DNA from: Candidatus Dormiibacterota bacterium
GTDB lineage: Bacteria > Chloroflexota > Dormibacteria > Aeolococcales > Aeolococcaceae
DNA: 64,000 nucleotides
Direction: 5' to 3'
Assembly (NCBI GenBank): GCA_003153505.1
Contig: PLZA01000025.1
Span: 4,513 to 68,512, forward strand
The notes under the pieces were generated by a model. It saw only the letters and a program-made list of their open reading frames with translations. It was not told the DNA's origin and made no database searches. How positions within the stretch are numbered: position 1 is the stretch's first letter; the number at the start of each line of letters is the position of its first letter. A program made the translations under genes and the position numbers. Shown here one piece after another: positions 12,380 through 57,906 of the stretch.

Positions 12380-13167
12380 GCGCGGGACCGAGCAGCGCCT
12401 ATCAGGGCGTCGCAGCAGCATGGGCGCGAGGCCCGGCGGCGCTCTACGACGCGCTGGCCACGGTGGCGATCGCGGAGGTCGCCCACGAGCTTGCGGGGGC
12501 GACGGTGCTCGACGTCGGCGCCGGGACGGGCGCGCTCTGTCGCGCGCTGCGATCAGCGGGAGCGGTGCCCATCGCGGTCGACACGTCGGCAGACATGCTC
12601 CGCCTCGCCGGCGCTGCAGCCGCGTTTACCGTGGTCGCCGACATGTGCGCGCTGCCCATCAATGAGAGAAGCGTTGACGCGGCGGTGAGCGGGTTCGCCA
12701 TCTCGCATCTCCACCAGCCGGAGCGCGCGCTGGAGGAGATGCGCCGCGTGGTGCGACCGCACGGACGCGTCGTCGCGGCAGTGTTCGGTGAAGCTCCTGC
12801 GAGTGCGGCGAAGGACGTCGTCGATACTGTCGTCAAGGACTACGGGTATCAGCCGCCGGACTGGTATCTCGAGCTCAAGAACGGCACCGAGCCACGATCC
12901 AACACGCCCGCGCTGCTCCGGCACTGTGCCGAGAGCGCACGCCTCGACGCCATCGAGGTCGCCGACATCAGCGTCGAGCCCGGTCTCGACACGCCCGAGG
13001 CGATCACCGCGTATCGCACCGGTCTGGCGCATGTCGCGCCGTTCATTGCGGCGTTGCCGATGGCGCAACGCGACGAGCTCATCAGTCGCGCTGTCGCAGC
13101 GGTTCGAAACCGCGGTCAAGCCGTGCGGCCGCGAGTCCTGGTGCTCTCGAGTCGCGTTCCAGCGTAA
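12367..13167 (+). CDS. class I SAM-dependent methyltransferase
   Basis: Motif I VLDVGAGTGAL; post-I acidic D in IAVDTSADM; motif II/III ...AAVSGFAISHL...RVVRPHGRVV. GTG start inferred, overlapping the upstream stop. Confidence 0.7.
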   Translation: MAAVSAGPSSAYQGVAAAWARGPAALYDALATVAIAEVAHELAGATVLDVGAGTGALCRALRSAGAVPIAVDTSADMLRLAGAAAAFTVVADMCALPINERSVDAAVSGFAISHLHQPERALEEMRRVVRPHGRVVAAVFGEAPASAAKDVVDTVVKDYGYQPPDWYLELKNGTEPRSNTPALLRHCAESARLDAIEVADISVEPGLDTPEAITAYRTGLAHVAPFIAALPMAQRDELISRAVAAVRNRGQAVRPRVLVLSSRVPA

Positions 13168-16100: not shown

Positions 16101-16388
16101 GATCACCGCCAGTTGGGCGGGTGGGTCGCGCGGCTGATCGTCGACCCAGAGAACGTCAGCGAGGCGCTCGATGCTGACCGGACGCCCCTGCGCGATACCG
16201 AGCACCCTCAGCGCAAGTCGGGCTTTGCGGCTGCCGAGCTGATGCTCGGAGAACCCTTCGACGGAGAGCCCGCCGATGACGTGGACTCGCACCTCGTCCG
16301 GCAACGACGCCGGGCGCACCGACGGCGGTGCCTCAGCGCGGACCACGGCACCTAGGATACGTGGCGCGGGTCCGCGCGAGGGCAGCAC
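13116..16388 (-). CDS. AfsR/SARP-family STAND regulator: N-terminal OmpR-type wHTH + BTAD, central NB-ARC/AAA ATPase (GEPGIGKT), C-terminal TPR array
   Basis: VHVIGGLSVEGFSEHQLGSRKARLALRVLG...RLADVLWVDDQPRDPPAQLAVIMSRLR (wHTH); BTAD helices; Walker A VIEGEPGIGKTAV; a long TPR-like C-terminal region. 1090 aa. Confidence 0.8.
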   Translation of the reverse strand: MLPSRGPAPRILGAVVRAEAPPSVRPASLPDEVRVHVIGGLSVEGFSEHQLGSRKARLALRVLGIAQGRPVSIERLADVLWVDDQPRDPPAQLAVIMSRLRGVFGAGRITHSDAGYALHAEWVDLTAASELASEADRRLHEDQPAPALAAAAAARALLAHPALDEEAWPAEERRAVERLCARSRHLVARAAFAAGDLATGVEAAEQALDEDPYDEESLRLVMAALAAQGRSSSALAMYERMRARLDDELGSSPSELTTAVHIAVLKGLRVPGIVVASSRSRPRRSGGGADLPGRDDELRALDEAFARAQTGSPAAVVIEGEPGIGKTAVASAWIDRLGPDTVVLSARCDQLSRSLPLQPVLQMIRNHLRKVGTDVGLELLGADALLLEPMLDWSSTESVPFGDITQTQASSLAGLAVAFAALRRFVRRACTSPAVLFIDDLQRADPLTWAWINELIASPDLLLLVLLTRRTEEGEVPAQATRIVLSPLSLEAARQIVGEEHARRLHERSGGNALFLTQLASSDEHAAPPASIQAAVLDRCSEAGTAARTLMSAAVLGASIDIDVLAAVLRTDPILLLEDLDVGVRLGLLEAREGAYAFRHAIVREALDMSTASPRRALLHREAARVLSTRPAADPLLVAHHARLSGARTLASAALTSASRIAADRFDYATALDLATEAIDADDTADARIQRAVVQLRLARFDAAQADAASAVGVAADSRALEVAGAVAYYCKDFVHAARFGEALIQQSGDPSQRVQGGVIKARALHAIGDVVGADDAMEQAIAECRKHRLRQPTSVYAFLKVHMGEVGLAISAIEASPLAAADAASTIIYTPVHGYLAHGYALATCGRAAEAGAVLERAVAEARRRGLVRYAALGANMGAWVLRNIGEIDRAREANAAALDPARDSGYRELEVYALLDPCDDPIAARDVTAARHGIDAARARMEEPYAYRWRNELRLDLLEGRIALLRNDPDAALQFAERLIAGATDRYAPRYAQLGEVLRLQARAGLGAEPPAPEVLTELSSSLSAVAGIEAWWVLAELGASLGSDVCFGLADAHRDRLAGHLDASVRAAFLDYAGTRLESTRTRGRTA

Positions 16389-36586: not shown

Positions 36587-37036
36587 ATGGGCACCAGGAT
36601 CCGCGTGGCCACCACCATCAGGGCATCCCCCGACACGACGTGGTCGGCGATCGAGAAGCTCGAAACACACGTCAACTGGATGGCGGATGCGGAGTCGATC
36701 GCGTTCACGACGGCGCAACACTCTGGCGTGGGCACCATGTTCGACTGCGTGACCAGGATCGGCCCGATTCGCCTCGTCGACGCAATGTCGATCACCCGGT
36801 GGGTGCAGGGTGAGGCAATGGGTGTCGAACATCGCGGCGTCGTACGCGGTTCCGGCGTCTTCACGCTGCGCGCGATTGGTGACCGGCGCACGCTGTTCTC
36901 CTGGGAGGAGGCGCTGACATTTCCGTGGTGGCTCGGCGGTTCGATTGGTGAGATCGTCGCCCGACCGCTGCTCACTCGGATCTGGCGGGGCAACCTGGTC
37001 CGGCTCAAGCGCATGGTTGAGGAACGTGGCTCGTGA
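36587..37036 (+). CDS. SRPBCC (START/Bet v1/polyketide-cyclase-like) family protein
   Basis: MGTRIRVATTIRASPDTTWSAIEKLETHVNWMADAESIAFT... 149 aa with the typical SRPBCC pattern. Confidence 0.6.
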   Translation: MGTRIRVATTIRASPDTTWSAIEKLETHVNWMADAESIAFTTAQHSGVGTMFDCVTRIGPIRLVDAMSITRWVQGEAMGVEHRGVVRGSGVFTLRAIGDRRTLFSWEEALTFPWWLGGSIGEIVARPLLTRIWRGNLVRLKRMVEERGS

Positions 37037-37286
37037 CCCCGAGTCGCGTGTGCGACCGCGCCGGCGAGCGCCCGGGTGCTGGGTCGAGCGATCTGGACGC
37101 CTGGGTCGGACCGCTGTAACAAGAACGCAACCGCAGGCGGTCCAGATCGGACCGCTCTGGCAAGGCCCTCACGGCTCGCTCCCCTGGAAGTCACAAAACC
37201 GATCACGGGTGATCACAAGGCCTTGAGACGAGCGGGTTTCGCATACGGTCGTGGCGTCTTCGTCTATCAGGTTTGAGAGATCCTTT

Positions 37287-40200
37287 GTGAGCAACACTCA
37301 CCCGCTCCGATCGTCCGGACACGCCCTGGCCCGCCGGCTGCAAACGCCGATGTGCATGGTGACCGTGTTCGCGACGCTATTCGCGCTCCTGCCGGCCGAC
37401 GCACTCGCCGCGGGCTCCACGCTCGAGACGGAGACGTTCGCCAACAACTCCACGGGCGCCGGGCAGTGGTACCTGCCCGCCGGGCGAGGGGGCACCAACG
37501 GAGCGTGCCTGACCGCTGGACCAGTGTCGGCCACCACCTCCATACCGAACTGCCCGTCGCCGCCTGACACCTCAGGGAGTGGCGCGCTCCGGCTGACCAC
37601 CAACGCCGGCAACGCGGTCGGGGCCGCCTTCTACCAGGCGAGCCTGCCGACCACCGAGGGTCTGGACCTCACGCTCGACACCTATCAATACAACGGCACC
37701 GGCGCGGACGGCATCGTCTTCACCCTCGCCGCAGCCAACCCCGCGAGCCCCACGCCGCCCTCGACCACCGGCCCGCTGGGCGGTGACCTGGGCTACGCGG
37801 CGAATACCCAGGGCTCGCCGGGAACAGCCGGGATGCCTTACGGGTACCTCGGCATCGGCCTCGACGTATATGGCAACTACGAGAACACTCCGCTCGCGGG
37901 GGGGTCCGGCTGCACGATCCCCTCGCCGCTTGTGGCCAACAAGGCCTACCCGGAGTCGGTGACGGCACGCGGGCCCGGCAACGGCACCGTGGGCTACTGC
38001 ATCCTCGGCACGACCGCGACCACGTACAACAAGTCGAGCGGCGGCGGCAGCGGCGGCGGCACGATCGGCAATGTCGGCGCCGGCAACACGCTCGACAAGC
38101 AGACCGCGACCTCGCGTGCCGGGGTCTTGGTTCCTGTCGAGATGGCGATCAACCCGTCGGCATCGGCAACGACCACGGCGAGCGGGCTGTCCGTCCCTGC
38201 CAACTCCTGGATCATCGCCTACACGCCACTCGGGACCACCACCCAGCAGACTCTGACCGGTGCCCTTCCCACCACCACCAACAACGCCGCACTGGCGACA
38301 TTCCCGGCGTCGTGGATCAATCCCGCGACCGGGATCCCCTACCAGCTCACCTTCGGTTGGACGGCGTCGACCGGCGGGTCGAATGAGTACCACGAGGTCA
38401 ACCAGCTGGTCGCGACGACGCTGGTGGGCGCGGTCCCTGACCTGTCGATCACCACGTCCGACAACGAGGGCGGACAGATGCTCGCCGGCAACCACGCCAA
38501 CTTCATCCTCGCCCCTGGGGTCGCGGCAAGTGGTGGCACCGAGGCGAACCTGCTGACGGTCACCGACACGCTCCCGGCGGGCATGACCCCCGGTACGGCA
38601 ACGAGCAGCTCGGACTGGGCGTGCACCACCGTGTCCCAGACGGTCACGTGCACGTACACGCCGGGCTCGGCGATCGCGGCCGGCACCTCGCTCCCCAACA
38701 TCACCATTCCGGTGACGCTGTCGTCGGGGTTGAGCGGCAGCGTCACCAACTCCGCGCGCATCTCGTCAACCGACGGGCTGCCCGCGGTGAGCAGCGACAC
38801 GGTGAACGTTTCCTCTTTCACTGCAACCGCTTTGCCCTCTCCGCAGGCATACAGGCAGGCGGTGACGTACACAGCAGCGCTGCCCGCTTCTGCAACCGGT
38901 ACGGTCACCTTCAGCATCGGCGGCACGACGATGTGCACCGCGACACTGCCCGCGCTGAGCTGCAGCGCGACCACTGCGCCCGTCGGCTCGGACACCGTCA
39001 CCGCGACGTACTCGGGTGACTCGAACTTTGCGCCCCAGACGACCACGACACCGCTCACGATCACCAAGGCAACCCCATCCTTCACAGAGTCGGCGGCGCC
39101 GGCGACGATCGTCTTCGGCGCACAGGACACACTCTCCGCCTCCGGTCTTCCCGCCGGCGCAACCGGGACGGTGACCTTCGCTTCTGGCGGGTCGACGTTG
39201 TGCGTCACCACGCTCCCGGCGACGAACTGCCAGACGGCGAGCACCCTTGCGGCAGGGACATACCCGGTCACCGCGACCTATTCCGGTGACGCTAACTACA
39301 CCACCGCAACCGCAACCGGCGCCAGCTTCACCGTGACCAAGGCGAGCACCTCGATGACCGAATCTGCCGCGCCCGCGAGCATCCCGTACGGGACGGCGGA
39401 CACGGTCTCGGTCTCCGGGCTGCCTGCGGGAATCGCCGGCACCGTCACCTTCGCGTCGGGCGGATCAACGCTCTGCGTCGCCACACTGCCTGCCTCGAGC
39501 TGCGCAACGTCCACGACACTGGCTCCGGGCACGTACCCGGTGACCGCGACGTACTCGGGTGACACCAACCACAGCGGCACCACCGCGACCGGTGCGAGCT
39601 TCACGGTCACCAAGGCGAGCGCGTCGATGACCGAGTCCGCAGCGCCGTCCAGCGTTCCCTACGGCACCAGCGACACGCTCTCGGTCTCGGGGTTGCCCGG
39701 TGGCGCCACCGGCAGCGTGACGTTCACCTCGGGTGGGTCAACGCTGTGCACCGCGACGCTTCCCGCAACGAGCTGCGCCACGTCGACGACACTCGCACCA
39801 GGCACGTACCCCGTGACCGCGACCTACTCGGGTGACAGCAACTTCACCGGCACGACCGTGGGTGGGGCGAGCTTCATCGTCACCAAAGCGGACACGTCGA
39901 TGACCGAGTCCGCGTCGCCGCCGTCGATCGGGTTCGGCGCGCAGGACACGCTGTCCGTGGCGGGTTTGCCCGCAGGCGCAACGGGAACTGTCACCTTCAC
40001 CTCGGGCGGATCCACCCTCTGCGTCACCACGCTTCCGGCGGCCAGCTGCCAGACAGCGACGACACTCGCCCCCGGCGCGTACCCGGTGCAGGCGACCTAT
40101 TCGGGTGACAGCAACTACAACGGCACCACCGCAAGCGGTGCGAGCTTCATCGTCACCAAGGCTGATCCGACATTCAGCGAATCCGCGGCACCGTCGAGCG

Positions 40201-41942
40201 TTGCGTACGGCACAGCCGACACGCTGTCCGTGACCGGGCTTCCTGCCGGCGCCACCGGGACGCTGACCTTCACGTCGGGTGGATCGACGCTCTGCGTCAC
40301 CACGCTTCCGGCGACCAGCTGTGACACGTCGTCGACGCTGGACCCGGCGTCCTACCCTGTGACCGCAACCTATTCCGGCGACAGCAACTACAACCCCGCC
40401 ACTGCGACGGGCGCAAGCTTCACCGTCACCAGGGCGGACACCGCGATGACCGAGTCCGCGTCACCCGCATCCATCCCGTACGGATCGCAGGACACCCTGT
40501 CGGTGGCCGGGCTGCCCGTCGACGCGACGGGAACGGTGACCTTCTCCTCGGGCGGCTCCTCGCTCTGCACCGCGACCTTGCCGGCGATTAGTTGCCAGAC
40601 CGCCTCCACGCTCGCCCCGGGCACGTACCCGGTGACCGCGACATACGCCGGCGACAGCCATTACAAGGGCACCGCCGCGGGGGGCGCGAGCTTCAGGGTC
40701 ACCAAGGCCGATCCCCCGTTTACCGAGTCGGCCGCACCCGCGATCATCCCCTACGGCGCCGCTGACACACTGTCCGCGGCCGGACTCCCAGGCGCTGCCA
40801 CCGGCACCGTGACCTTCACATCGGGCGGGCCCACACTCTGCGTCGCCACAATCCCCGCGATCAGCTGCCAGACGTCGATGACGCTCGCTCCGGGCACATA
40901 CCCAGTGATCGCGACGTACTCCGGTGACAGCAACTTCAGCGGCAGCACCGCGACGGGCGCGAGTTTCACTGTGACCCAGGCAGACACGGCAATGACCGAG
41001 TCTGCCTCGCCCGCGAGCATCCCCTTTGGGTCGCAGGACACGCTGTCGGCAGCGGGACTGCCGGGCGACGCGACGGGGACGGTGACCTTCACCTCGGGTG
41101 GATCCACGCTCTGCACCGCCACCCTGCCCGCGATCACGTGCCCGACGGCTGCGACGCTGGTGCCGGGGACGTATCCCGTCACCGCGACCTACTCGGGTGA
41201 CAGCCACTACAACGGCAACACGGCATCTGGCGTGAGCTTCACGGTCACCCGCGACATCGTCGACCTCCTCGAGTCGGCGGCTCCCGCCACGATCGTCTAC
41301 GGCTCGACCGACACCATCTCCGCGCTGGGACTGCCTGCGGGCGCCACCGGGACGGTGACGTTCACGTCCGGCGGCACGACGCTGTGCGTGGCCACGCTCG
41401 CAGCAACGAGTTGCCACACGGTGGCCACGCTGACGCCGGCGACCTACCCAGTGACGGCCGCCTACTCGGGCGACACCTTGAACGCCCCCGCAACCGCAAC
41501 CGGCGCGCAGTTCACGGTCATCAAGGCGGATACGCACATCACGGTCACCGTCTCGCCCGCGTCCACGATCAGAGGACAGACCGTCACGGTGTCGGTCGGC
41601 GGCCTCCCGCCCGGCGTGTTCGGGACGATCACGTTCACCTCCGTTGGCCTGGTGCTCTGCACCGCGACGCTGCCGGCGCTGAGTTGCACCACGACGATCA
41701 ACTTCAACCCCGGCACCTATCCCGTGACCGCCACGTACTCGGGTGATCCCGACTACAACGGATCGACCGCTGGCGGCAGCGGCCAGGATGGTGTGCTCTC
41801 CGTGGTTGAGGGCATCGCTGATCCCTCGACCGGCGCAGGTCCGATGGGCCAGCGGGGCCTGCTCGGTGCGGCGATGGTCATCCTCGGGACCGGCATGATG
41901 GTGGTCTCGCGGGGCCGGCGGCGGCGCAACCGGAAGATCTGA
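37287..41942 (+). CDS. giant secreted cell-surface protein: signal peptide, L-type (legume-like) lectin domain, DUF11 'conserved repeat' domain, 11 tandem 91-aa Ig-like repeats, C-terminal Pro/Gly motif + hydrophobic helix + Arg-rich tail
   Basis: Signal ...RRLQTPMCMVTVFATLFALLPADALAAG. Start ambiguous: GTG 37287 or ATG 37350. Lectin-like GALRLTTNAGNAVGAAFYQASLP...GADGIVFTLA...GYLGIGLDVYGNYEN. DUF11-like LLTVTDTLPAGMTPG...ACTT...TVTCTY. Repeats have consensus FTVTKAdtsMTESAAPasIpYG..DTLSvsGLPagATGTVTFtSGGSTLCvaTLPatSCqTstTLAPGTYPVTATYSGDsNy.gtTAtGAS. Tail IADPSTGAGPMGQRGLLGAAMVILGTGMMVVSRGRRRRNRKI*. Confidence 0.8.
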   Translation: MSNTHPLRSSGHALARRLQTPMCMVTVFATLFALLPADALAAGSTLETETFANNSTGAGQWYLPAGRGGTNGACLTAGPVSATTSIPNCPSPPDTSGSGALRLTTNAGNAVGAAFYQASLPTTEGLDLTLDTYQYNGTGADGIVFTLAAANPASPTPPSTTGPLGGDLGYAANTQGSPGTAGMPYGYLGIGLDVYGNYENTPLAGGSGCTIPSPLVANKAYPESVTARGPGNGTVGYCILGTTATTYNKSSGGGSGGGTIGNVGAGNTLDKQTATSRAGVLVPVEMAINPSASATTTASGLSVPANSWIIAYTPLGTTTQQTLTGALPTTTNNAALATFPASWINPATGIPYQLTFGWTASTGGSNEYHEVNQLVATTLVGAVPDLSITTSDNEGGQMLAGNHANFILAPGVAASGGTEANLLTVTDTLPAGMTPGTATSSSDWACTTVSQTVTCTYTPGSAIAAGTSLPNITIPVTLSSGLSGSVTNSARISSTDGLPAVSSDTVNVSSFTATALPSPQAYRQAVTYTAALPASATGTVTFSIGGTTMCTATLPALSCSATTAPVGSDTVTATYSGDSNFAPQTTTTPLTITKATPSFTESAAPATIVFGAQDTLSASGLPAGATGTVTFASGGSTLCVTTLPATNCQTASTLAAGTYPVTATYSGDANYTTATATGASFTVTKASTSMTESAAPASIPYGTADTVSVSGLPAGIAGTVTFASGGSTLCVATLPASSCATSTTLAPGTYPVTATYSGDTNHSGTTATGASFTVTKASASMTESAAPSSVPYGTSDTLSVSGLPGGATGSVTFTSGGSTLCTATLPATSCATSTTLAPGTYPVTATYSGDSNFTGTTVGGASFIVTKADTSMTESASPPSIGFGAQDTLSVAGLPAGATGTVTFTSGGSTLCVTTLPAASCQTATTLAPGAYPVQATYSGDSNYNGTTASGASFIVTKADPTFSESAAPSSVAYGTADTLSVTGLPAGATGTLTFTSGGSTLCVTTLPATSCDTSSTLDPASYPVTATYSGDSNYNPATATGASFTVTRADTAMTESASPASIPYGSQDTLSVAGLPVDATGTVTFSSGGSSLCTATLPAISCQTASTLAPGTYPVTATYAGDSHYKGTAAGGASFRVTKADPPFTESAAPAIIPYGAADTLSAAGLPGAATGTVTFTSGGPTLCVATIPAISCQTSMTLAPGTYPVIATYSGDSNFSGSTATGASFTVTQADTAMTESASPASIPFGSQDTLSAAGLPGDATGTVTFTSGGSTLCTATLPAITCPTAATLVPGTYPVTATYSGDSHYNGNTASGVSFTVTRDIVDLLESAAPATIVYGSTDTISALGLPAGATGTVTFTSGGTTLCVATLAATSCHTVATLTPATYPVTAAYSGDTLNAPATATGAQFTVIKADTHITVTVSPASTIRGQTVTVSVGGLPPGVFGTITFTSVGLVLCTATLPALSCTTTINFNPGTYPVTATYSGDPDYNGSTAGGSGQDGVLSVVEGIADPSTGAGPMGQRGLLGAAMVILGTGMMVVSRGRRRRNRKI
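38812..41790 (+). repeat. eleven tandem copies of a 273-bp coding repeat (period 91 aa), near-identical at the DNA level
   Basis: Unit starts: accaaggcaacc at 39063 and accaaggcgagc at 39336, a 273-bp spacing. Eleven units by protein alignment. This causes the many long antisense ORFs listed in the six-frame track for 38.3-42.0 kb. Confidence 0.85.
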
Positions 41943-42019
41943 CTCGAGGCGCGGTCCCGAGTCCCGAGATCGGGCGGTCGCAGGCGCCGGTGCGCGTGAG
42001 AGTAGGCTCGTGGGCAGCA

Positions 42020-43120
42020 ATGACCACCGCTGCAACGAGCGTCACCGACCGGAGCCTGCTCCACCGGATGACGCAGACCACGCCCACCTGCCTCTGGAAT
42101 GACTCGGCGTCGATCGAGGAGCTCACGTACGCGATCGAGCAGGGCGCTGTCGGCGCCACGTGCAATCCGGTGATCGCCATGGCGGTGCTTGCGGCTGATA
42201 CGGCCACATGGCGTCCGCGCACGGAAACCCTGATTCGCGAACTGCCCACCGCGACCGAGGACACCATCGCCTGGAGGCTGGTGGAGGAGCTGTCGATCAG
42301 AGCGGCGCGGCTGCTCGAACCGATCTTCGAGGCACAGCACGGGCGCAACGGGCGGCTGTCGATTCAGACCGATCCCCGGTTGTTCCGCGACAGCGATGCG
42401 ATCGTCGAGCAGGCGCTCGCCTTCAACACGCTCGCCCCGAACATGATCGTGAAGATTCCCGTGACCCGCGCCGGAATCGTGGCGATCGAGGAAGCGACAT
42501 ACCAGGGGATCAGCATCAACGCGACCGTCAGCTTCACGCTCCCGCAGTGCATCGCTGTTGCCGAGGCCGTGGAGCGCGGACTCCGGCGCCGCGAGCACGA
42601 GGGCAAGGACATCGCGTCCATGGGTCCGGTGTGCACGATCATGGTCGGCCGTCTTGACGACTGGCTCAAGGCGTCAATGGAGCGGGATGGGATCGCCATC
42701 GATCCCGGGTACCTCGAGTGGGCGGGTGTGGCGGTGTTCAAGAAGGCGTACGCGATCTTTCGCGAGCGTGGCTACCGGATCAGGCTGCTGTCAGCAGCGT
42801 TCCGCAATCACATGCACTGGAGCGAATTCATCGGCGCCGACGCCGTGGTATCCCCGACGTCCGCGTGGCAGAAACGCATCAATGCCAGCGATATCGAGGT
42901 TGTTCCCCGCATTGACAACACGGTCGATCCGAAGGTGGTGGACGAACTGCTCGCGCACTTCGATGACTTCCGCCGCGCGTACGCCGAGGACGGCCTCAGC
43001 GTCGAGGAGTTCGACGGTTTCGGTGCGACGCGGCACACGCTGCGCCAGTTCTGCGCAGCGTGCTGCGACCTGAACGCATTCGTGCGTGATGTGATGATCC
43101 CCGACCCGGGTCGAGGCTAG
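42020..43120 (+). CDS. transaldolase-family protein
   Basis: ...TPTCLWNDSASIEELTYAIEQGAVGATCNPVI...MIVKIPVTRAGIVAIEEATYQGISINATVSFTL... is a transaldolase/F6P-aldolase TIM-barrel signature, including the Schiff-base Lys region (KIPVT). Confidence 0.7.
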   Translation: MTTAATSVTDRSLLHRMTQTTPTCLWNDSASIEELTYAIEQGAVGATCNPVIAMAVLAADTATWRPRTETLIRELPTATEDTIAWRLVEELSIRAARLLEPIFEAQHGRNGRLSIQTDPRLFRDSDAIVEQALAFNTLAPNMIVKIPVTRAGIVAIEEATYQGISINATVSFTLPQCIAVAEAVERGLRRREHEGKDIASMGPVCTIMVGRLDDWLKASMERDGIAIDPGYLEWAGVAVFKKAYAIFRERGYRIRLLSAAFRNHMHWSEFIGADAVVSPTSAWQKRINASDIEVVPRIDNTVDPKVVDELLAHFDDFRRAYAEDGLSVEEFDGFGATRHTLRQFCAACCDLNAFVRDVMIPDPGRG

Positions 43121-45138: not shown

Positions 45139-45531
45139 ATGATCCGCGCCCGTCTGATGACCGTTCTGGCGCTCGTGGCCGGTGGCCTTGCCGCGTGCAG
45201 TAGCGCTTCGCCGGCCACTCCGACGAACACGGTGTCAATCGGCAGTGCTGGTGTCCATCTCGGTACCCCCGCCGTGGTCGTTGCGGCGACTGATCAGAAC
45301 ACCTTCAACCCCGTGACCGTGACGGTGACCGCCGGCGAGATCGTTGAGTGGAGGGACGACGGTTCGGTCGCTCACAACATCATCTTTGCCGACGACTCGT
45401 CGATCGGGGATCCTGTGATCGATGGTGGCGGCGGTTCGTGGCAGGTGAAATTCACCACCCCGGGCACGTACCAGTACGCGTGCACGATTCACACGGGAAT
45501 GCTCGGCACGGTTGTTGTGACCTCCGGATAG
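45139..45531 (+). CDS. cupredoxin (plastocyanin/azurin-like blue-copper) lipoprotein
   Basis: Lipobox MIRARLMTVLALVAGGLAACS. Type-1 Cu ligands: His in VAHNIIF, then C-x2-H-x4-M in YACTIHTGMLGTV. Confidence 0.75.
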   Translation: MIRARLMTVLALVAGGLAACSSASPATPTNTVSIGSAGVHLGTPAVVVAATDQNTFNPVTVTVTAGEIVEWRDDGSVAHNIIFADDSSIGDPVIDGGGGSWQVKFTTPGTYQYACTIHTGMLGTVVVTSG

Positions 45532-47806: not shown

Positions 47807-50800
47807 TCAGACAGCTCGAACCTCTCCGATTCTGCGGCCCACCAGGGGAAGGACGTCCAACGGCGGATCGGCTGCATCGTCGTCGTCACCGATCGCATAG
47901 GCGACGGCTTCGTCGATCGTCATCGCCGCCCCGAGGCTTCGAGCCCGTGCCAGCGTTTCCTCGTCCAGCAGCCCGCACACCCTGGACACGGTGCGCTCGG
48001 CGGCGTCGCGGTCGGGGAGACTGTCAGGAGCAGCACCGCATCGCGCAGCGATACTCTCCACCGCCGCCGCCAGAACCGCGGCCCGGAACGGTCGATCGGT
48101 GGCGGCCGCGATGAACGCACAGGTCTCCATGGTGGTTGACAACCCGAGGGCGAACTCGGTGCGATGAGCAATGCGCAGCGACGCGACCGCGTGGTCTCGG
48201 GCCACGCTGTAGCTCCCCACATGGCGCTCGAGATTGGCGAGACTGTTGCGCACGGTCACGGTGCCGAGACAGTCTTCGAAGCCGAGACGGATCGCGGCTT
48301 CATACCAGGCTCGAGCCTGCTCGAAATCGCCGCGGTAGAAACAGGTTTCGCCAAGATTCCCATAACCGGCCATGAGCCCAACCGGTATCTTGAGCAACTC
48401 CCATACCGCTACGGCCTGGCGGAAATGCGCTTCGGCACCGGCAGCGTCGTCGCGCTTGTTTGCGAGGATGCCAAGGCTGTTATGCAGCACTGCCACGTTG
48501 GGCTGGTCGTCAGCCTGCAGCGAAAGCGCCATGCCCTCGACAAAGGCCGCCTCGGCTTCGCCAATGTCTCCTTGAATCGCGGCAAGGCGCCCCTTGCCGC
48601 TGAGCGCACGCCCGCGGGCTCGATTACTCCCACCCTGCATTGCCAGTGCACGATCGAGCCAGACGCGTCCCTCCGTGAGCGAGCCCTGCAGCCACCAGTA
48701 GTGCCACCAGGTGGCTGCGAGGCAGAGAAACAGCGCGGCATCAGCTCCCTCAGCCCACTCGAGAGCTGCCCGAGCATTGCTGTAATCGGCGTCCAGCCGG
48801 CGGACGAGCGTGCCCGATCGGACTTCGCGGTACCGCTGCTCAAATGACTCTCCGACACTCAAATAGTGCGTGGCATGGCGACTCCGAATCCGGTCTCCCC
48901 ACGGGTCATTCGCCAGTTTGTCTTGAGCGAACTGGCGCACCGTTTCGAGCAGCCGATAGCGTCCTTCCCCCGCGACCAGGTCGGAATACACGACCAGCGA
49001 TTTGTCGACCAGTTTCGCCAGCAATTCGACAACCTCCGCGGAGGGAAGGTCGTGGTCCGCACAGACGGTCTCAGCGGCGGCGAGGTCAAAGCTCCCGGCA
49101 AACACGCCCAATCGGCGGAACATGAGTTGTTCCTGTGCCGTGAGCAGGCGGTGACTCCAGTCGATCGTCTCCTGCATGGTGCGGTGGCGCGAGACGGTCG
49201 CCCGCCGGCTGCCGGTGATGAGCCGGAAGCGGTTCCCAAGGTGTTCCAGCAACTCTTCGGGTGAGAGCGCCGCACTGCGCGCGGCCGCAAGCTCGATGGC
49301 AAGGGGGATGCCGTCGAGCCGGGCGCAGAGTTGTGTGACGGCTCCCGCGTTGCCGGCGGTGAGGGCGAACGACTGACGCGACTTGTGCGCGCGCTCGACG
49401 AAAAGTCTCACCGCGTCGTGCTCGAGAAGCCGCTCGACGGAGGGGATCCGCGCAGCGTTCGGGGTGTCGAGCGGCGGCACCGACCAGGCCTGCTCCCCGT
49501 CGCAATTGAGGCGCTCTCGGCTGGTTGCGAGAATTGACAGCGCGGCGCAATCGCGGAGCAGTGTTTGCGCCAGTTCAGCCGTGGCGTCAACCAGGTGCTC
49601 GCAGTTGTCGAAGACAAGGAGCAGATGGCGTGGCTCGAGGAGCCCGGCAAGGCTCTGCACCGGAGTGAGGTCGGGTTGCTGACGAAGCCCCAGCCGGGCC
49701 ATCACCTCATGAGGGAGCGCCTCGGCCTCAGCAACGGTCGCGAGATCGATGAGCCAGACGCCATCGCGATAGCGGTCAACGGCGCGGCGCGCGACCTGAA
49801 GGGCGAGCCGGGTCTTTCCGATGCCACCCGAACCGACCAGGGTGACCAGGCGATTCGATGCCAGCAGCTCCGCCACCTCGGCGATCTGGTCTGCACGCCC
49901 TATGAAGCTGGAAACCTCGGCGGGGAGGTTGGTGCGGCTGCTCGTCGCTGACGGCGGATGGACGCGCCCTTCGGGTTCGGTGGAGCGAACAGGACTCACC
50001 TCATGCCTGAGGATCTCCCGGAACGTCGCCTGGAGGTCGGGTCCCGGCTCCATCCCCAGGTCATCCAACAGCCGGCGACGGGTGCGCTGATACGCGTCGG
50101 AAGCCTCGGCCTGCCGTCCGCACCGATAGAGCGTGACGAGGAGTTGGCTTTGCAGGCGTTCCCGAAGTGGATGCTCGTCGGCAAGCGCCTCGATCGCGCT
50201 GACGTTCTCTCGATGCAGGCCCATGCGCAGGCAGAGGTCGAATCGATCCTCGAGCGCCTCGAGGCGCAGCTTCTCGAAGCGAACGCGGTAGGCAGCGACA
50301 AAGGCAGCGTCGCCGAAGTCGTCCAGAGTGGGGCCTCGCCACAAGCCGAGAGCGCGGTCAAACAGGGCGAGCGCCTGCTGGTGACCGCCGCCGCCGGCAG
50401 CGGTTCGAGCTTCCGCGATGAGCCCGCGAAAGCGCGTCAGATCAAGTTCATCGGCCTTGAGCAATAGGGAGTATCCGGCCGGCCGACGCACCAAGAGCCT
50501 GCCCTCGGTGTGATCACAGTTCCCGTTCGGTTCGATCGTTCGACGCAACCGGTGGACGTGAACCCGAAGCGCGTCGACGACTCCATCGGCGGGCTCATCG
50601 CCCCAGATGATCTTCACGAGCTCGTCGTCCGACACGACGCGGTTCGCCTCGAGCGCGAGGGCCGCCAGGAGCATCCGCTGTTTCGCCCCACCGAGGTCGA
50701 GCGGCTTCCCATTGCGCCATACCTCGAGCGGGCCGAGGATGGCGAGGTCAAGAGCGAGCGACTCTGTGGGGGCCTGTCCGATCAGCGCCCCCCTGCCGTG

Positions 50801-50809
50801 AGCGGACAT
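47807..50809 (-). CDS. AfsR/SARP-family STAND regulator (wHTH + BTAD + NB-ARC ATPase + TPR), 1000 aa
   Basis: LAILGPLEVWRNGKPLDLGGAKQRMLLAALALE...LVKIIWGDEP (wHTH); BTAD; Walker A LVGSGGIGKTRLALQVA; TPR-like C-terminus. Confidence 0.8.
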   Translation of the reverse strand: MSAHGRGALIGQAPTESLALDLAILGPLEVWRNGKPLDLGGAKQRMLLAALALEANRVVSDDELVKIIWGDEPADGVVDALRVHVHRLRRTIEPNGNCDHTEGRLLVRRPAGYSLLLKADELDLTRFRGLIAEARTAAGGGGHQQALALFDRALGLWRGPTLDDFGDAAFVAAYRVRFEKLRLEALEDRFDLCLRMGLHRENVSAIEALADEHPLRERLQSQLLVTLYRCGRQAEASDAYQRTRRRLLDDLGMEPGPDLQATFREILRHEVSPVRSTEPEGRVHPPSATSSRTNLPAEVSSFIGRADQIAEVAELLASNRLVTLVGSGGIGKTRLALQVARRAVDRYRDGVWLIDLATVAEAEALPHEVMARLGLRQQPDLTPVQSLAGLLEPRHLLLVFDNCEHLVDATAELAQTLLRDCAALSILATSRERLNCDGEQAWSVPPLDTPNAARIPSVERLLEHDAVRLFVERAHKSRQSFALTAGNAGAVTQLCARLDGIPLAIELAAARSAALSPEELLEHLGNRFRLITGSRRATVSRHRTMQETIDWSHRLLTAQEQLMFRRLGVFAGSFDLAAAETVCADHDLPSAEVVELLAKLVDKSLVVYSDLVAGEGRYRLLETVRQFAQDKLANDPWGDRIRSRHATHYLSVGESFEQRYREVRSGTLVRRLDADYSNARAALEWAEGADAALFLCLAATWWHYWWLQGSLTEGRVWLDRALAMQGGSNRARGRALSGKGRLAAIQGDIGEAEAAFVEGMALSLQADDQPNVAVLHNSLGILANKRDDAAGAEAHFRQAVAVWELLKIPVGLMAGYGNLGETCFYRGDFEQARAWYEAAIRLGFEDCLGTVTVRNSLANLERHVGSYSVARDHAVASLRIAHRTEFALGLSTTMETCAFIAAATDRPFRAAVLAAAVESIAARCGAAPDSLPDRDAAERTVSRVCGLLDEETLARARSLGAAMTIDEAVAYAIGDDDDAADPPLDVLPLVGRRIGEVRAV

Positions 50810-53391: not shown

Positions 53392-56019
53392 TCAGCGGGC
53401 CTGGGATGCTCCCGCTGCCAACGCCGCCAGCGCGGGTACCGGTGTCGGCACCGCGACGTTGTGCTCGAGCAGCCGTCGCATCGCGAGCGGCGACAGCGGT
53501 TGTCCGAAGAGGAATCCCTGAGCCAGCTCGCAGCCCAGTTCGTGGAGCTCGTTGAGGCACTCCTCGGTCTCGACGCCCTCGGCGATGACGCTCAGGCCGA
53601 GACCGACTCCGAAATTGAACACAGAATGCGCGAAGCCGATCGACGTCGTGGGCCCGCACAGCGATGCGGTGAACGATCGGTCGATCTTGAGGATATCCAC
53701 CGGGAAGTCACGCAGCCGGCTGAGCGATGAGTGTCCGGTCCCGAAGTCGTCGAGCGCGATGCGCACGCCCAGCTCGCGAAGCTCGTTGAGGCAGCCGATG
53801 ATCGGCTCCGTGTCGTTGATGATGTCAGCTTCGGTCACCTCGACGATCAGTCGGCGCGCGTCGAGTCCCGTTTCCCGGAGCGCGGTGCGCACGGTGTCGA
53901 CGAAGTCCGGCTCGCGAAGCTGGCGGACGGCGACGTTGACGCTCACCGCGACTGGATCGATGCCATCGATCGACGGCCAGTCGCGCGCCTCCTCGCAGGC
54001 GCTGCGCAACACCCATGCTCCGACCTGGGTGATCAGCCCCGTCTCCTCGACGAGGCTGATGAAGTCGTCCGGCAGGACCGTCCCGCGCGTGGGATGCCGC
54101 CAGCGGAGCAGCGCCTCGGCAGCAACCACCGAGCAATTCGAGACGCGCACGATCGGCTGATACACCAGCTCGAATTCGACCGACTCCACCGCGTGGTACA
54201 GGTCGGCCTTGAGCCGGTGCCGGTGCTGCACCGCCGCGTACATCGCCGGCTCGAACAGCTCCCAGCGAGACTTGCCGGAACTCTTGGCGGTGTACAGGGC
54301 GAGGTCGGCGTTCTGGAGCAGCTCCTGACCGTCGCACCCGGTGTCGACGGCCGTCGCGATGCCGATGCTCGCGTGGGTCAGCACCTCCTCGGTGGCGATG
54401 GCGAACGGCTCGCGGAGTGCCTCGATGACCCGCTCCGCGATACGCACGGCAGTCGGCGCGCCGTCGATGCCGATGAGCAGCACGGCGAATTCGTCGCCGC
54501 CCAAACGCGCGGCCACATCGCCGGGACGCAGGCATTGCCCGATGCGGTCGGCGATCGCGCGCAGCAGCTCGTCGCCCGCGGCGTGGCCGAGGCTGTCGTT
54601 GACGGTCTTGAAGTCGTCGATGTCGATGAAGAGCACGCCCACGTGCTGTCCGGACTGCGCGAGGGCCTGGTCGACGCGAGAGCCGAAGAGCAATCGGTTC
54701 GCCATGCCGGTCAACGGATCGTGCGACGCCTCGTGACGCAGCTGGTCCTGGAGCACGGTGAGCTGCGACAGCGAGTGCTGCAGCCGTCCGCGTTCGAGGA
54801 TGACGCCGGTCTGATTGGCGAGCATCTCCAGCAGGCGAAGATCCTCGTCGTCGAAACCGGTGACCTCACCGAGGCGGTTGGCGATGAGCATCGTTCCCAC
54901 CATGTTGTTCTCGCCGCGGAGCACCACGGCCATGGCGTCGCGCAACCCGCGGCTTTCCAGGAACCCGTTGGGGTCACCACCGGTCTTGCCGTGCGCACTC
55001 AGCAGCAAGGGCGAGTCGAGGAGGAGCCGGCTCATGAACTGCAGCTCCGCGTCGTCGAGCGTCACCGGGGTCATGAACTCCGTGGTCTGTTCCTTGTCAA
55101 CCGCGGTGCGTACCACCGCGTCGCGCTCGCGGGTGGGGAGGAACGTGATCTCCGCGCGCTCCGCACGGAAGACCTCGCATGATTTAGTGAGCAGCGCCGC
55201 CACGGCGTCGTCGACGGCCGCGGTGCGTTGCAGGTCCTTGCTCGACTGGTAGAGGAAGTCGACCTGGTCGCGCTTCTCGCGCTCCGCAACATAGAAGCGG
55301 TAGGCGACAAAGACGCCGACGGTGGGAATGGCGAGCAGCCAGATCTCCCCAGGGTTCTCCCACACGAGGCGGACGCCGATCAGCGCGAGACACGTGTTCA
55401 CGATCGTTGCCGCCTGGGTGAACCCAAAGGTCGACGCGATGCCGGCGCGGTCGATGCGTCCCTCGGAGAGCGATATCGCGGCGAGGATCACCAGCGACTG
55501 GAGCACACCGCCGGCGAGGATCGCCCCCAGGACGCCGAGGAAGCTCATCGCGCTCAGCGGGTCGTGATGGTTGACGAGGTGCATGAAGAGCACCGCCACG
55601 ACGCTGTTGGCTACGGTGAAATTGGCGAGGTTGAAGGCCAGCTTCAGCGGTGACTGGCGGCGATGGACTGAGAGCGCCAACGCGGTCCCGGCAACCATCG
55701 AGAGCACCACCACCACCGGCGGTGCGAAGAAGAATCCTGCGACCAGAGGCAGCTCGCTGAGCGAGAAGGAATGCGCGTCGCGCCGGAACTGGAGGTGGAC
55801 CACGAACACCTCGGCCGCGCAGAAGGCCGGGATGAGCACCCACCAGGGGATCTGGCGGGGCGCCGCCAGCTCGTGCAGCGGGCCCACGACCTTGACGAGG
55901 AGGACGACCGCGGTGGCGACGAGCAGCACCGTCAGAAGAAGGACGCGGTGTCCCCTCCGAGCAGAAGCGGCGTGCCCCGGGTCGTCAGCGGACGCGCGGG
56001 CATCGACCTCGCTGGTCAT
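53392..56019 (-). CDS. c-di-GMP signalling protein: N-terminal polytopic membrane sensor (MASE-like) - GAF - GGDEF - EAL
   Basis: GGDEF ...VGVLFIDIDDFKTVNDSLGHAAGDELL...RLGGDEFAVLL. EAL ...ELVYQPIV...E-A-L-L-R..., DDFGTGHSSLSRLRDFPVDILKIDRSF. The start is uncertain between 56019 and 56109. Confidence 0.85.
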   Translation of the reverse strand: MTSEVDARASADDPGHAASARRGHRVLLLTVLLVATAVVLLVKVVGPLHELAAPRQIPWWVLIPAFCAAEVFVVHLQFRRDAHSFSLSELPLVAGFFFAPPVVVVLSMVAGTALALSVHRRQSPLKLAFNLANFTVANSVVAVLFMHLVNHHDPLSAMSFLGVLGAILAGGVLQSLVILAAISLSEGRIDRAGIASTFGFTQAATIVNTCLALIGVRLVWENPGEIWLLAIPTVGVFVAYRFYVAEREKRDQVDFLYQSSKDLQRTAAVDDAVAALLTKSCEVFRAERAEITFLPTRERDAVVRTAVDKEQTTEFMTPVTLDDAELQFMSRLLLDSPLLLSAHGKTGGDPNGFLESRGLRDAMAVVLRGENNMVGTMLIANRLGEVTGFDDEDLRLLEMLANQTGVILERGRLQHSLSQLTVLQDQLRHEASHDPLTGMANRLLFGSRVDQALAQSGQHVGVLFIDIDDFKTVNDSLGHAAGDELLRAIADRIGQCLRPGDVAARLGGDEFAVLLIGIDGAPTAVRIAERVIEALREPFAIATEEVLTHASIGIATAVDTGCDGQELLQNADLALYTAKSSGKSRWELFEPAMYAAVQHRHRLKADLYHAVESVEFELVYQPIVRVSNCSVVAAEALLRWRHPTRGTVLPDDFISLVEETGLITQVGAWVLRSACEEARDWPSIDGIDPVAVSVNVAVRQLREPDFVDTVRTALRETGLDARRLIVEVTEADIINDTEPIIGCLNELRELGVRIALDDFGTGHSSLSRLRDFPVDILKIDRSFTASLCGPTTSIGFAHSVFNFGVGLGLSVIAEGVETEECLNELHELGCELAQGFLFGQPLSPLAMRRLLEHNVAVPTPVPALAALAAGASQAR

Positions 56020-56157
56020 GTGCGCATGCTCCGCGACGTGAGGGGAACCCGAACTCACCGTGCCAGCCCTGTTGCCAAGCGGTAGCAGGGCCATCGGCGG
56101 CGCGCGCATCGTCGTGGCGAGGCGATGGCGAGAACGTGCCGGGCGAAGGTCGCGGAC

Positions 56158-57906
56158 CTAACTCCAGTCGTCTTCGGACCAGCTCGAGCCCGACCAGGAG
56201 GAACCGGACCACGAGCCTCCTGACCACGAGGAGCCGAGCCATTCGGCGCCTGACCACGATGACCCGGACCAGGATGAGCCCGACCACGATGAGCCCGACC
56301 ACGACGATCCCGACCAGGACGAGCCCGACCACGAGGAGCCGGACCACGACGAGCCGTTGAAATCCCCGCCATCCCAGGCAGAGCCATTCGCCTCGGCCGC
56401 GGCGAGTGCCGTGGTGTCGACGTTGTTGCCGAAGATGTCCTGCTCGCCGGTGAGCGCATTGCCGTTCGCGTCGACCACATGCTGCGAACCGCGCGCGGCC
56501 TCGAGGCTGCCGGTGCCGGTCGACGCCTGCCAGTTCTGGGTGGCGTTCGGCGTGGGCGCGGCGAGCACGCCGGCGAGGTTCAGCTCACCGCTGCCCTTGA
56601 GGTCGCTGTAGCCGTACATGGAATGGGTGTGGCCGACGAGGAGCGCCTTCACCTGGTCCGGCGTCAGGCCGGGCCGCTGGCTGAGCAGGAGAGCCGCCGC
56701 GCCCGAGACGACGGCGGCTGCCTGCGACGTGCCGCTCCCGAGGAAGAAGCGATTGCTGACCGTTGCGGTGGCGCCGAATGCATCGTCGACGAAGGATCCC
56801 GGATCCCGCAGTGAGACGATGTGGACGCCAGGAGCTGAGAGGTCGGGGTTGCGCGTGCCGTCGCCCTCGCTTGTAAAGCCCGCGGGCGAGTGGTAGCGGA
56901 CCATCGTGGTGTTGCGGGTGTTGGCCGCACCCACTGCGATGACGTACGGGTCGATCGCCGGGTCGGCGAGGCCGTTGGAGTCATTGCCCTGGTTACCGGC
57001 AGCGACCACCACGACGATGCCGTGCAGCCAGGCCTGCTCCGCTGCATAAGCAAGCGGGTCGAGGACGTAACTCTGGTTGCTGTCGGTGCCGTATGAGAGG
57101 TTGAGCACGCGGATGTTCATGCCGTTGTCTTTCTGGTGCTGTACCACCCAGTCGATGGCGGCGAGCACCTGCGACACGTCGGTCTGGCCGAGCGCATCGG
57201 CGACCTTGATGCTGACGATCTGCGCATCAGGCGCCATGCCCATGAAATGGGTGGTGTCGCTCGAGCTCACCGACGTCGCCTCACTGTCGCGGCCGGCGAT
57301 GATCCCAGCCATGTGGGTGCCATGACCGAAGGTGTCGAGATACTCGAGCGACGGGTTCTGTGATTCGAAGGAGAGGTCGGGCCCGTTGACCACCTTGCCG
57401 GGGGTGGTGAGTCCGTCGACGGGGGCCACGCCGGAGTCGATCAGTGCAACGCCGACGCCCTGGCCGGTGTAGCCCGCGTTCCAGTACGCGTGCGCGCCGT
57501 CCATCTGCTCGACGTTGTACATGGAGTTGACGTCGGTCACCGGGTTGTACGGGTTGCTCGGCGTGCCCCAGCCGGCGCCGAGGAGCTGGACCGGTGCGTT
57601 GAGGGTGACCTGGGCGACGGCGCCCGAAGTCTCGAGTTCCGGGACGGCGTCTGCGGGGACGTCCGCGACGGTCGCGTTGATCAGACTGATGTGCTCCTGG
57701 ACGGTGCCACCGAGCGAGGTGATCTCCTGATCCGCGGCGGCGGTCCCGGCCGGCTGCGCGCGCACGATCACGGACACGAGGTGTGCATCGGCATGCGCTG
57801 TCGTGGCCAGCGCGCCGGCGCTGAGCAGGACGGCCGTGGCGCTCGCGAGCGCGCTGACGGTGCGCCGCTTGCGATCGTCCCAGCTGATGCCGTGGACAGG
57901 AGCCAT
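56158..57906 (-). CDS. secreted S8-family subtilisin-like serine peptidase with a C-terminal (G-S-S-W-S)n Trp-rich pentapeptide-repeat tail
   Basis: Signal peptide ...RRTVSALASATAVLLSAGALATTAHA. Catalytic Asp VALIDSGV, His HGTHMAGIIAG, Ser GTSQAAAVVSGAAALL. Tail NGSSWSGSSWSGSSWSGSSWSGSSWSGSSWSGSSWSGAEWLGSSWSGGSWSGSSWSGSSWSEDDWS*. Confidence 0.85.
   Translation of the reverse strand: MAPVHGISWDDRKRRTVSALASATAVLLSAGALATTAHADAHLVSVIVRAQPAGTAAADQEITSLGGTVQEHISLINATVADVPADAVPELETSGAVAQVTLNAPVQLLGAGWGTPSNPYNPVTDVNSMYNVEQMDGAHAYWNAGYTGQGVGVALIDSGVAPVDGLTTPGKVVNGPDLSFESQNPSLEYLDTFGHGTHMAGIIAGRDSEATSVSSSDTTHFMGMAPDAQIVSIKVADALGQTDVSQVLAAIDWVVQHQKDNGMNIRVLNLSYGTDSNQSYVLDPLAYAAEQAWLHGIVVVVAAGNQGNDSNGLADPAIDPYVIAVGAANTRNTTMVRYHSPAGFTSEGDGTRNPDLSAPGVHIVSLRDPGSFVDDAFGATATVSNRFFLGSGTSQAAAVVSGAAALLLSQRPGLTPDQVKALLVGHTHSMYGYSDLKGSGELNLAGVLAAPTPNATQNWQASTGTGSLEAARGSQHVVDANGNALTGEQDIFGNNVDTTALAAAEANGSAWDGGDFNGSSWSGSSWSGSSWSGSSWSGSSWSGSSWSGSSWSGAEWLGSSWSGGSWSGSSWSGSSWSEDDWS
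56164..56358 (-). repeat. about 13 tandem copies of a 15-nt coding repeat (encodes SSWSG) at the 3' end of the S8 peptidase gene
   Basis: The plus strand shows reiterated gaccacga(g/c)gagcc(c/g) units through 56160-56360. Confidence 0.8.

Follow-up and report, generated by a model that had tools for sequence, protein, structure and literature searches.

A probable fibrillar lectin adhesin with an eleven-unit Ig-like stalk and an LPXTG-type sorting-signal-like tail in Candidatus Dormibacterota

The window analyzed here is a stretch of 64,000 nucleotides (64 kb) from contig PLZA01000025.1 of a Candidatus Dormibacterota bacterium, and our subject is the gene at positions 37287–41942 of its forward strand. 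This gene encodes a large protein that reads, from its N terminus, as a predicted signal peptide, an L-type lectin head, a DUF11-like domain, a stalk of eleven immunoglobulin (Ig)-like units, and a tail with the layout of a sortase sorting signal. As the list of open reading frames (ORFs) shows, the frame extends over 37251–41942 (+), or 1563 amino acids (aa) counted from the first GTG, and the residue numbers used throughout (Asp153, Thr1527, and so on) start at that codon. On the basis of the ORF list and the orthologue N termini, we place the start at GTG 37287, which yields 1551 aa. A GAGAGA stretch lies a few bases upstream of this codon, and the resulting N terminus agrees with those of the orthologues P0001 and P0002, where 'M..H....H..ARRL..' is followed by a hydrophobic core and an A-x-A. 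The start is ambiguous; the public gene calls use ATG 37356 (1528 aa), which cuts off the signal peptide's basic n-region, while the orthologue N termini favor GTG 37287. The ~1550-aa protein that the initial annotation had drawn at these positions is borne out by the ORF, and its start fits the orthologues.

The exact 1528-aa product is present in public collections, where it is annotated as 'hypothetical protein'. The identical protein is found on 12 public contigs from different samples and assemblers, short-read assemblies included, and on all 12 the gene is flanked by a thiolase/SRPBCC pair on one side and by a transaldolase on the other. Therefore, the gene is real and reproducibly assembled. 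Its GC content at third codon positions (GC3) is 0.86. Antisense ORFs at 38339–39277, 39296–39658, and 40751–41188 (all on the minus strand) lie within the repeat array and have GC3 values of 0.84–0.86; these are not genes but shadow frames that the high-GC coding strand produces, and they could mislead gene callers.

By inspection, positions 37287–37409 (+) encode a predicted Sec-type signal peptide, which comprises a basic n-region with ARRLQ, the core CMVTVFATLFALL, and a cleavage site between ADALA and AGS. The same predicted layout is kept in the orthologues. The mature protein has a mass of ~143 kDa, an isoelectric point near 4, and 19% Thr. By spacing, its 28 Cys residues fall into 14 pairs, 11 of which are C-x8-C pairs, one per stalk unit; the other three, two in the lectin and one in the DUF11-like domain, are assigned from adjacency and conservation. 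The predicted Cys pairing, together with the mass, isoelectric point, and Thr content, fits an extracytoplasmic protein.

The head (37419–38417, +) is a legume-like lectin domain of ~330 aa with two Cys pairs and with Asp153, Gly177/178, Asp205, Asn209, and His381 as its marked residues. An AlphaFold2 (AF2) model of the head, built on an alignment of 54 sequences, has a predicted local distance difference test score (pLDDT) of 92.5 and a predicted template-modeling (TM) score of 0.89. When this model is compared with the PDB by Foldseek, the top match is the ligand-binding region of SraP (4m00), followed by YwfG (7yl4) and then by the pea, FRIL, and Platypodium lectins, with target TM-scores of 0.6–0.69. 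An archaeal legume-lectin domain, ERGIC-53, and the A domain of Aap (8deo) are among the further matches, and the E values for SraP, YwfG, the pea, FRIL, and Platypodium lectins, and ERGIC-53 are 1e-8 to 1e-6. The model is a concanavalin-like beta-sandwich that can be superposed on the solved L-type lectins, and it exceeds the legume lectins by ~100 aa and extra loops. In a profile alignment of the family with peanut lectin, gADGisF aligns with ADGIIFF, GGsLG with GGTLG, and GiGlDvYGN with GVEFDTYSN; D153, G177/G178, D205, and N209 are invariant in the 54 family sequences. On these models the head has a genuine L-type lectin fold, a reading that is structurally well supported and that agrees with the initial annotation, whose quoted lectin motifs are present.

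The Pfam scores for the head are lower. The N-terminal 540 aa alone match PF18483 (Lectin_L-type_dom) with 26.6–27.6 bits (E 3e-6 to 6e-6), far under the gathering cutoff of 78.3, and a scan of the whole protein at E≤0.1 gave no lectin match. A search with residues 54–540 retrieved 138 relatives, many of which carry precomputed matches to PF18483, PF00139, or PF01345. As in legume lectins, we take Asp153 (in ADG), Gly177/178 (in GGxLG), and Asn209 (in DxYxN) to be the sugar-contact residues and Asp205 to be the Asp of the Ca site, and we infer from them that the head binds sugar. The same fold might instead serve a non-carbohydrate or otherwise non-canonical ligand, or the protein might chiefly give structure or spacing to the envelope or the biofilm matrix. 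This would be in keeping with the extra loops of the enlarged head and with the replacement by Gly of the Mn-site Glu of legume lectins (GIGLDVYGN here). It also has a precedent in the lectin-like domains of Aap, SasG, and Pls, which are without the cis-peptide and seem to be non-canonical binders (PMC9999234). That precedent, the low Pfam lectin score, and a literature search that turned up no experimentally characterized member of the lectin plus DUF11 head family all weigh against a sugar-binding adhesin. However, the three canonical sugar-contact residues (Asp, Gly, Asn) are invariant family-wide, and glycan binding is proven for YwfG and SraP, which match the head best in structure, with YwfG binding alpha-1,2-mannose (10.1101/2022.08.19.504583). 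On balance, we consider a non-canonical or mainly structural role quite improbable.

The lectin is followed at 38439–38810 (+) by a DUF11-like beta-sandwich with a single Cys pair (C458/C467). The match to PF01345 covers 101 of the 114 profile positions with 24.2 bits (E 4.5e-5), several homologues carry precomputed PF01345 matches, and the AF2 head model has a confident all-beta domain at this position. The DUF11 domain called in the initial annotation corresponds to this all-beta, DUF11-like domain of the model, and its Pfam score falls just below the cutoff of 24.6.

The stalk occupies 38811–41810 (+) and, by Pfam, identity matrices, and AF2, consists of eleven units of 91 aa (273 base pairs (bp)), each with a C-x8-C pair. 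Big_3_5 (PF16640, bacterial Ig-like group 3) matches eleven stretches with 401 bits vs a cutoff of 35.5 (E 1.3e-122); the profile search proposed earlier for this protein is thus strong for the Ig-like family and weak for the lectin. The period is strictly 91 aa, or 273 bp, except for 90 aa between the first two units. The structure prediction that had been suggested for the repeat was carried out on two consecutive units, and the AF2 model (pLDDT 94.6) shows two Ig-like beta-sandwiches that match tandem Ig/Fn3 structures, bacterial adhesins among them. The initial annotation had described the units as near-identical and conserved down to the DNA level. Their number and their 273-bp period stand, but the near-identity does not: units 2–10 are 63–77% identical to each other in DNA and 59–79% in protein, and Tandem Repeats Finder detects only 39142–41249 (+) as a repeat (period 273, 7.7 copies, 73% matches). 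Exact DNA words shared within the array reach at most 26 bp. The first and last units are the divergent ones: unit 11 shares 44–53% protein identity with units 2–10, and for unit 1 an ungapped alignment, offset by one residue, gives ~20%.

The comparison with relatives bears on the age of the array. Four intact orthologues from Dormibacterota metagenome-assembled genomes (MAGs; L004–L007), at 72–78% protein identity, all have 11 units with identical spacing, and units at the same position in different orthologues are more alike (72–78%) than units at different positions (67–68%). Three loci from long-read assemblies (L001–L003) are collinear with the window protein over its full length, and in the cluster at 90% identity all six proteins of full length have 1528 aa. 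Because the orthologues share 11 units with positional orthology, the array is older than the divergence of these species, and its number of units has stayed fixed. These observations contradict several expectations that the initial annotation had attached to the repeats, namely, recent expansion or ongoing gene conversion, copy-number variation between strains, and fragility in short-read assemblies. The units are diverged and positionally conserved, their number is the same in the orthologues, the length of the full-length proteins is constant within the cluster, and the identical protein has been recovered on short-read contigs with no exact repeat above 26 bp in the way.

The same data address two other readings of the array. 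One is that the protein is of the Periscope type, in which highly similar DNA repeats recombine and the unit number varies by strain and so tunes the projection of the head. Its N-terminal lectin, array, and C-terminal wall anchor are arranged as in Aap, SasG, and Pls (PMC9999234, PMC8201768), and adjacent units share 60–79% protein identity, above the <50% that is usual for multidomain proteins (PMC8201768). However, proteins of the Periscope class are by definition built from DNA repeats that are highly identical and that differ in number among close strains (PMC8201768, PMC9999234). Here the DNA identity between units is 63–77% with no common word beyond 26 bp, and the number stands at 11 across species, with the full-length cluster members all at 1528 aa and the identical protein on 12 contigs. 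The Periscope reading is largely refuted, and we regard it as very improbable. The other is that eleven units are an assembly artifact, through collapse or inflation of the repeat. Assemblers are known to have trouble with repeat arrays, and the long-read relatives are broken by frameshifts. Against this, different samples and assemblers gave an identical product on 12 contigs, short- and long-read orthologues are collinear over their full length with 11 units, and exact repeats end at 26 bp; the chance of an artifact is negligible.

As regards those frameshifts, the long-read (metaFlye-style) relatives are split by +1 shifts: L001 at ~11192 and 13104, and likewise L002, P0001–P0007, P0020, and P0091. 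Relative to the short-read locus L006, L001 has three indel sites. Two of them, both at frame changes, consist of one additional T within GAG(T)TCG; the remaining site is a pair of indels that compensate each other. The pattern resembles a systematic error of base calling, perhaps at a methylated GAGTC site, more than genuine pseudogenes.

The last 42 residues of the protein read IA-DPSTG-AGPMGQR-GLLGAAMVILGTGMMVV-SRGRRRRNRKI. They comprise the pentapeptide DPSTG (residues 1524–1528; 41820–41834, +), a hydrophobic membrane-spanning stretch GLLGAAMVILGTGMMVV (41856–41906, +), and the positively charged stop-transfer tail SRGRRRRNRKI with the stop codon (41907–41942, +); the putative sortase motif is borne by the peptide VEGIADPSTGAGP. 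The hydrophobic span and basic tail, both kept in the orthologues, form the very C terminus and follow the motif by no more than ~35 residues. The tripartite layout noted in the initial annotation is therefore present. Its remark that LPXTG and LAXTG are lacking is literally true, yet DPSTG differs from LPXTG at one position only. Orthologous lineages have DPSTG, DPTTG, TPDTG, VPETG, VPTTG, or VPSTG at this place, and short head-only paralogues of ~520 aa, which are probably from Dormibacterota, have VPSTG, VPMTG, IPPTG, or VPPTG. V, I, T, and D are thus seen at motif position 1, and P-x-T-G is invariant in 13 of 13 aligned tails (long orthologues from Dormibacterota MAGs and short paralogues) while the neighboring residues vary, which indicates selection on the motif and strengthens the sorting-signal claim. 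Many Actinomycetota homologues of the head have LPxTG, LAxTG, or a similar motif with a transmembrane helix and Arg tail in the same place, and others end in wall-binding modules (OmpA-like, CWB2). Read in this way, the sequence places the tail among sortase signals of the LPXTG type, its first position being relaxed. A signal of the exosortase or rhombosortase type was ruled out, there being no PEP or GlyGly motif.

The short paralogues (P0031, P0034, P0041, P0046, and P0050; loci L013, L084, and L085) combine the lectin plus DUF11 head with [VI]PxTG, a transmembrane helix, and a basic tail. In both L084 and L085 the short paralogue has a YkuD L,D-transpeptidase gene ~1.6 kb upstream.

Several results weigh against processing of this tail by a sortase. 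The NCBIfam models of LPXTG-type anchors gave no significant match to it, the best being Rumino_NPXTG (E 0.41). In a word index of 5.8 billion proteins the tail found one 65-aa fragment and nothing else, and a HMMER search with its 50 aa against 1.84 billion representatives gave three matches, all of them orthologues or fragments. Therefore, the tail is not a sequence-conserved CTERM-type domain; the HMMER test is uninformative on generic LPXTG-type signals. To our knowledge, no characterized sortase substrate has Asp at motif position 1. The pneumococcal pilins RrgA/B/C carry YPRTG, IPQTG, and VPDTG, and Clostridioides difficile substrates carry (S/P)PxTG, motifs that belong to class C or class B sortases of Bacillota. 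These resemble the V/I/T/D series in that a residue other than Leu is tolerated at position 1 and P-x-T-G is kept, but none of these examples has an acidic residue there. Finally, the window, the only part of the source genome covered by the search, yielded no sortase by Pfam on ~50 ORFs, by a TLxTC motif scan, or by phmmer, as the initial annotation had also stated, and none turned up in the 88 fetched loci (~1.8 Mb) by the motif scan and phmmer. The phmmer query was the S. aureus SrtA sequence, with which every ORF in the window and the loci was searched; the TLxTC scan of both gave only spurious out-of-frame ORFs. The neighborhoods of the short paralogues P0046 and P0050 likewise contain no sortase, and the literature yielded nothing usable on sortases in Dormibacterota or Chloroflexota.

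These results could mean that the same lectin-stalk protein simply stays in the membrane as a type I protein held by its C-terminal helix, with the PxTG a relic that no sortase ever processes. The missing sortase in the window and 88 loci, the unusual Asp, a tail without sequence relatives beyond orthologues, and the lack of a match to an LPXTG-anchor hidden Markov model would all fit. A relic, however, would not be expected to keep P-x-T-G invariant across lineages at 72–86% identity and across paralogues while the flanking linker varies, which argues for selection, and the Actinomycetota homologues have canonical LPxTG/LAxTG at the equivalent place. Moreover, the gene of a housekeeping sortase is not normally linked to the genes of its substrates. 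We hold a plain membrane anchor to be unlikely.

We therefore favor the reading that the gene encodes a secreted fibrillar lectin adhesin of Candidatus Dormibacterota that is sorted to the wall by an LPXTG-type signal, and we consider this fairly probable. The lectin head, the stalk of one DUF11-like and eleven Big_3_5 domains, and the sorting-signal-like tail occur in one polypeptide, which is the arrangement by which fibrillar adhesins are defined (PMC9210967). The possibly carbohydrate-binding adhesin proposed in the initial annotation is consistent with this predicted architecture. The protein would be exported by Sec, lose its signal peptide, and fold with disulfides outside the membrane, where the transmembrane helix and Arg tail would retain it until a sortase acts. 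The sortase would cut between Thr1527 and Gly1528 and join the Thr to peptidoglycan. The DUF11-like domain and eleven disulfide-stapled Ig-like units would then hold the lectin tens of nanometers off the wall, with a stalk length of roughly 40–50 nm if each domain contributes ~4 nm, and the lectin tip would bind a glycan, probably in a Ca-dependent manner. In peat or soil, the likely role of the protein would be to attach the cell to glycans, whether these come from plant litter, from fungi, from other microbes, or from its own matrix.

The comparative data also allow a more tentative suggestion. The V/I/T/D-P-x-T-G tails may mark a Dormibacterota sortase with relaxed or unusual first-position specificity, and the head may be a widespread glycan-attachment module. 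Both ideas are possible but somewhat doubtful, and the same caution applies to the notion that the lectin plus DUF11 head is common to soil Actinomycetota and Dormibacterota, perhaps by transfer. If true, this would be the first sign that Dormibacterota, which are uncultured and presumably monoderm, anchor proteins covalently to the wall. The protein itself is a concrete, structurally confident surface adhesin candidate in a phylum known only from metagenomes, and it hints that these cells have a wall with sortase-linked proteins; the glycan specificity of its head could inform how these bacteria attach to organic matter.

The assignment to Dormibacterota agrees with the nearest loci among GTDB species genomes (78–86% head identity), all of which belong to MAGs of Candidatus Dormibacterota recovered from samples of palsa, bog, and Danish soil. 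The next-nearest loci, at ~50% or less, are mostly from Acidimicrobiia and other Actinomycetota, with one Dormibacterota paralogue locus. The matches to named proteins had suggested an origin in Acidimicrobiales, and this was ruled out since the loci at 78–86% identity are all Dormibacterota MAGs. Dormibacterota are a sister group of Chloroflexota or a class within it (PMC10608941).

The genes around it in the window serve metabolism or regulation (thiolase, SRPBCC, transaldolase, KduI, peptidases, ABC transporters, and AfsR-like regulators), and none has a functional link to the adhesin. Upstream of the gene, Rfam gave no match to a riboswitch or other RNA at E≤1, and the region 36900–42200 contains neither a sigma-70-like promoter nor a terminator-like site on the plus strand. 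Elsewhere in the window, an S8 subtilase at 56158–57906 (−; Pfam E 4e-40) has C-terminal SSWSG/GSSWSG repeats and adjoins a GAF-GGDEF-EAL protein at 53392–56109 (−). Three AfsR/SARP-like regulators are encoded at 13116–16388 (−), 47807–50809 (−), and 7–1089 (+). Two are full-length (~1000–1090 aa) with BTAD and AAA domains, one of them also with Trans_reg_C, NB-ARC, and TPR; the third is a shorter ORF of 360 aa with Trans_reg_C and BTAD that starts at the 5′ edge of the window. A BNR/Asp-box, Sortilin-Vps10-like beta-propeller (2581–3678, +) and a DUF3558 protein (1370–2011, +) are candidate envelope proteins, and a cupredoxin is encoded at 45139–45531.

Among known systems, the closest in plan are SraP of S. 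aureus (4M00) and YwfG of Lactococcus lactis (7YL4-6), which are wall-anchored and carry a distal L-type lectin followed by beta-sandwich modules. The head described here shares only 13–14% sequence identity with them and is a ~330-aa domain with two disulfides. Their further regions are cadherin-like, mucin-binding, or serine-rich, whereas ours are DUF11 and Big_3_5, and they belong to Bacillota with LPXTG rather than to Dormibacterota with DPSTG. Aap, SasG, and Pls, which are of the Periscope kind, likewise combine an N-terminal legume-like lectin, a rod of tandem domains, and a C-terminal sortase signal, but their stalks are built of E-G5 domains and not of Big_3_5. The fibrillar adhesins surveyed by Monzon and colleagues (PMC9210967) share the order of adhesive domain, stalk, and anchor, with the N-terminal tip distal to the anchor; that survey was on Firmicutes and Actinobacteria, whereas the present protein is from Dormibacterota and has a variant tail motif. 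An adhesin of this kind is already well known among bacteria, its sorting system is not novel, and its repeats are neither young nor unstable. Closest in sequence is the lectin plus DUF11 family of Actinomycetota, which is 32–56% identical across the whole head module and includes a 'lectin-like domain-containing protein' of Streptomyces mesophilus (P0118) and loci of Leifsonia, Curtobacterium, Micromonospora, and Streptosporangium. The C-terminal parts of its members differ from ours, being fn3, OmpA-like, or CWB2 modules, very long arrays (>3800 aa), or absent altogether. The lectin plus DUF11 head defines a large, uncharacterized family in soil Actinomycetota and Dormibacterota.

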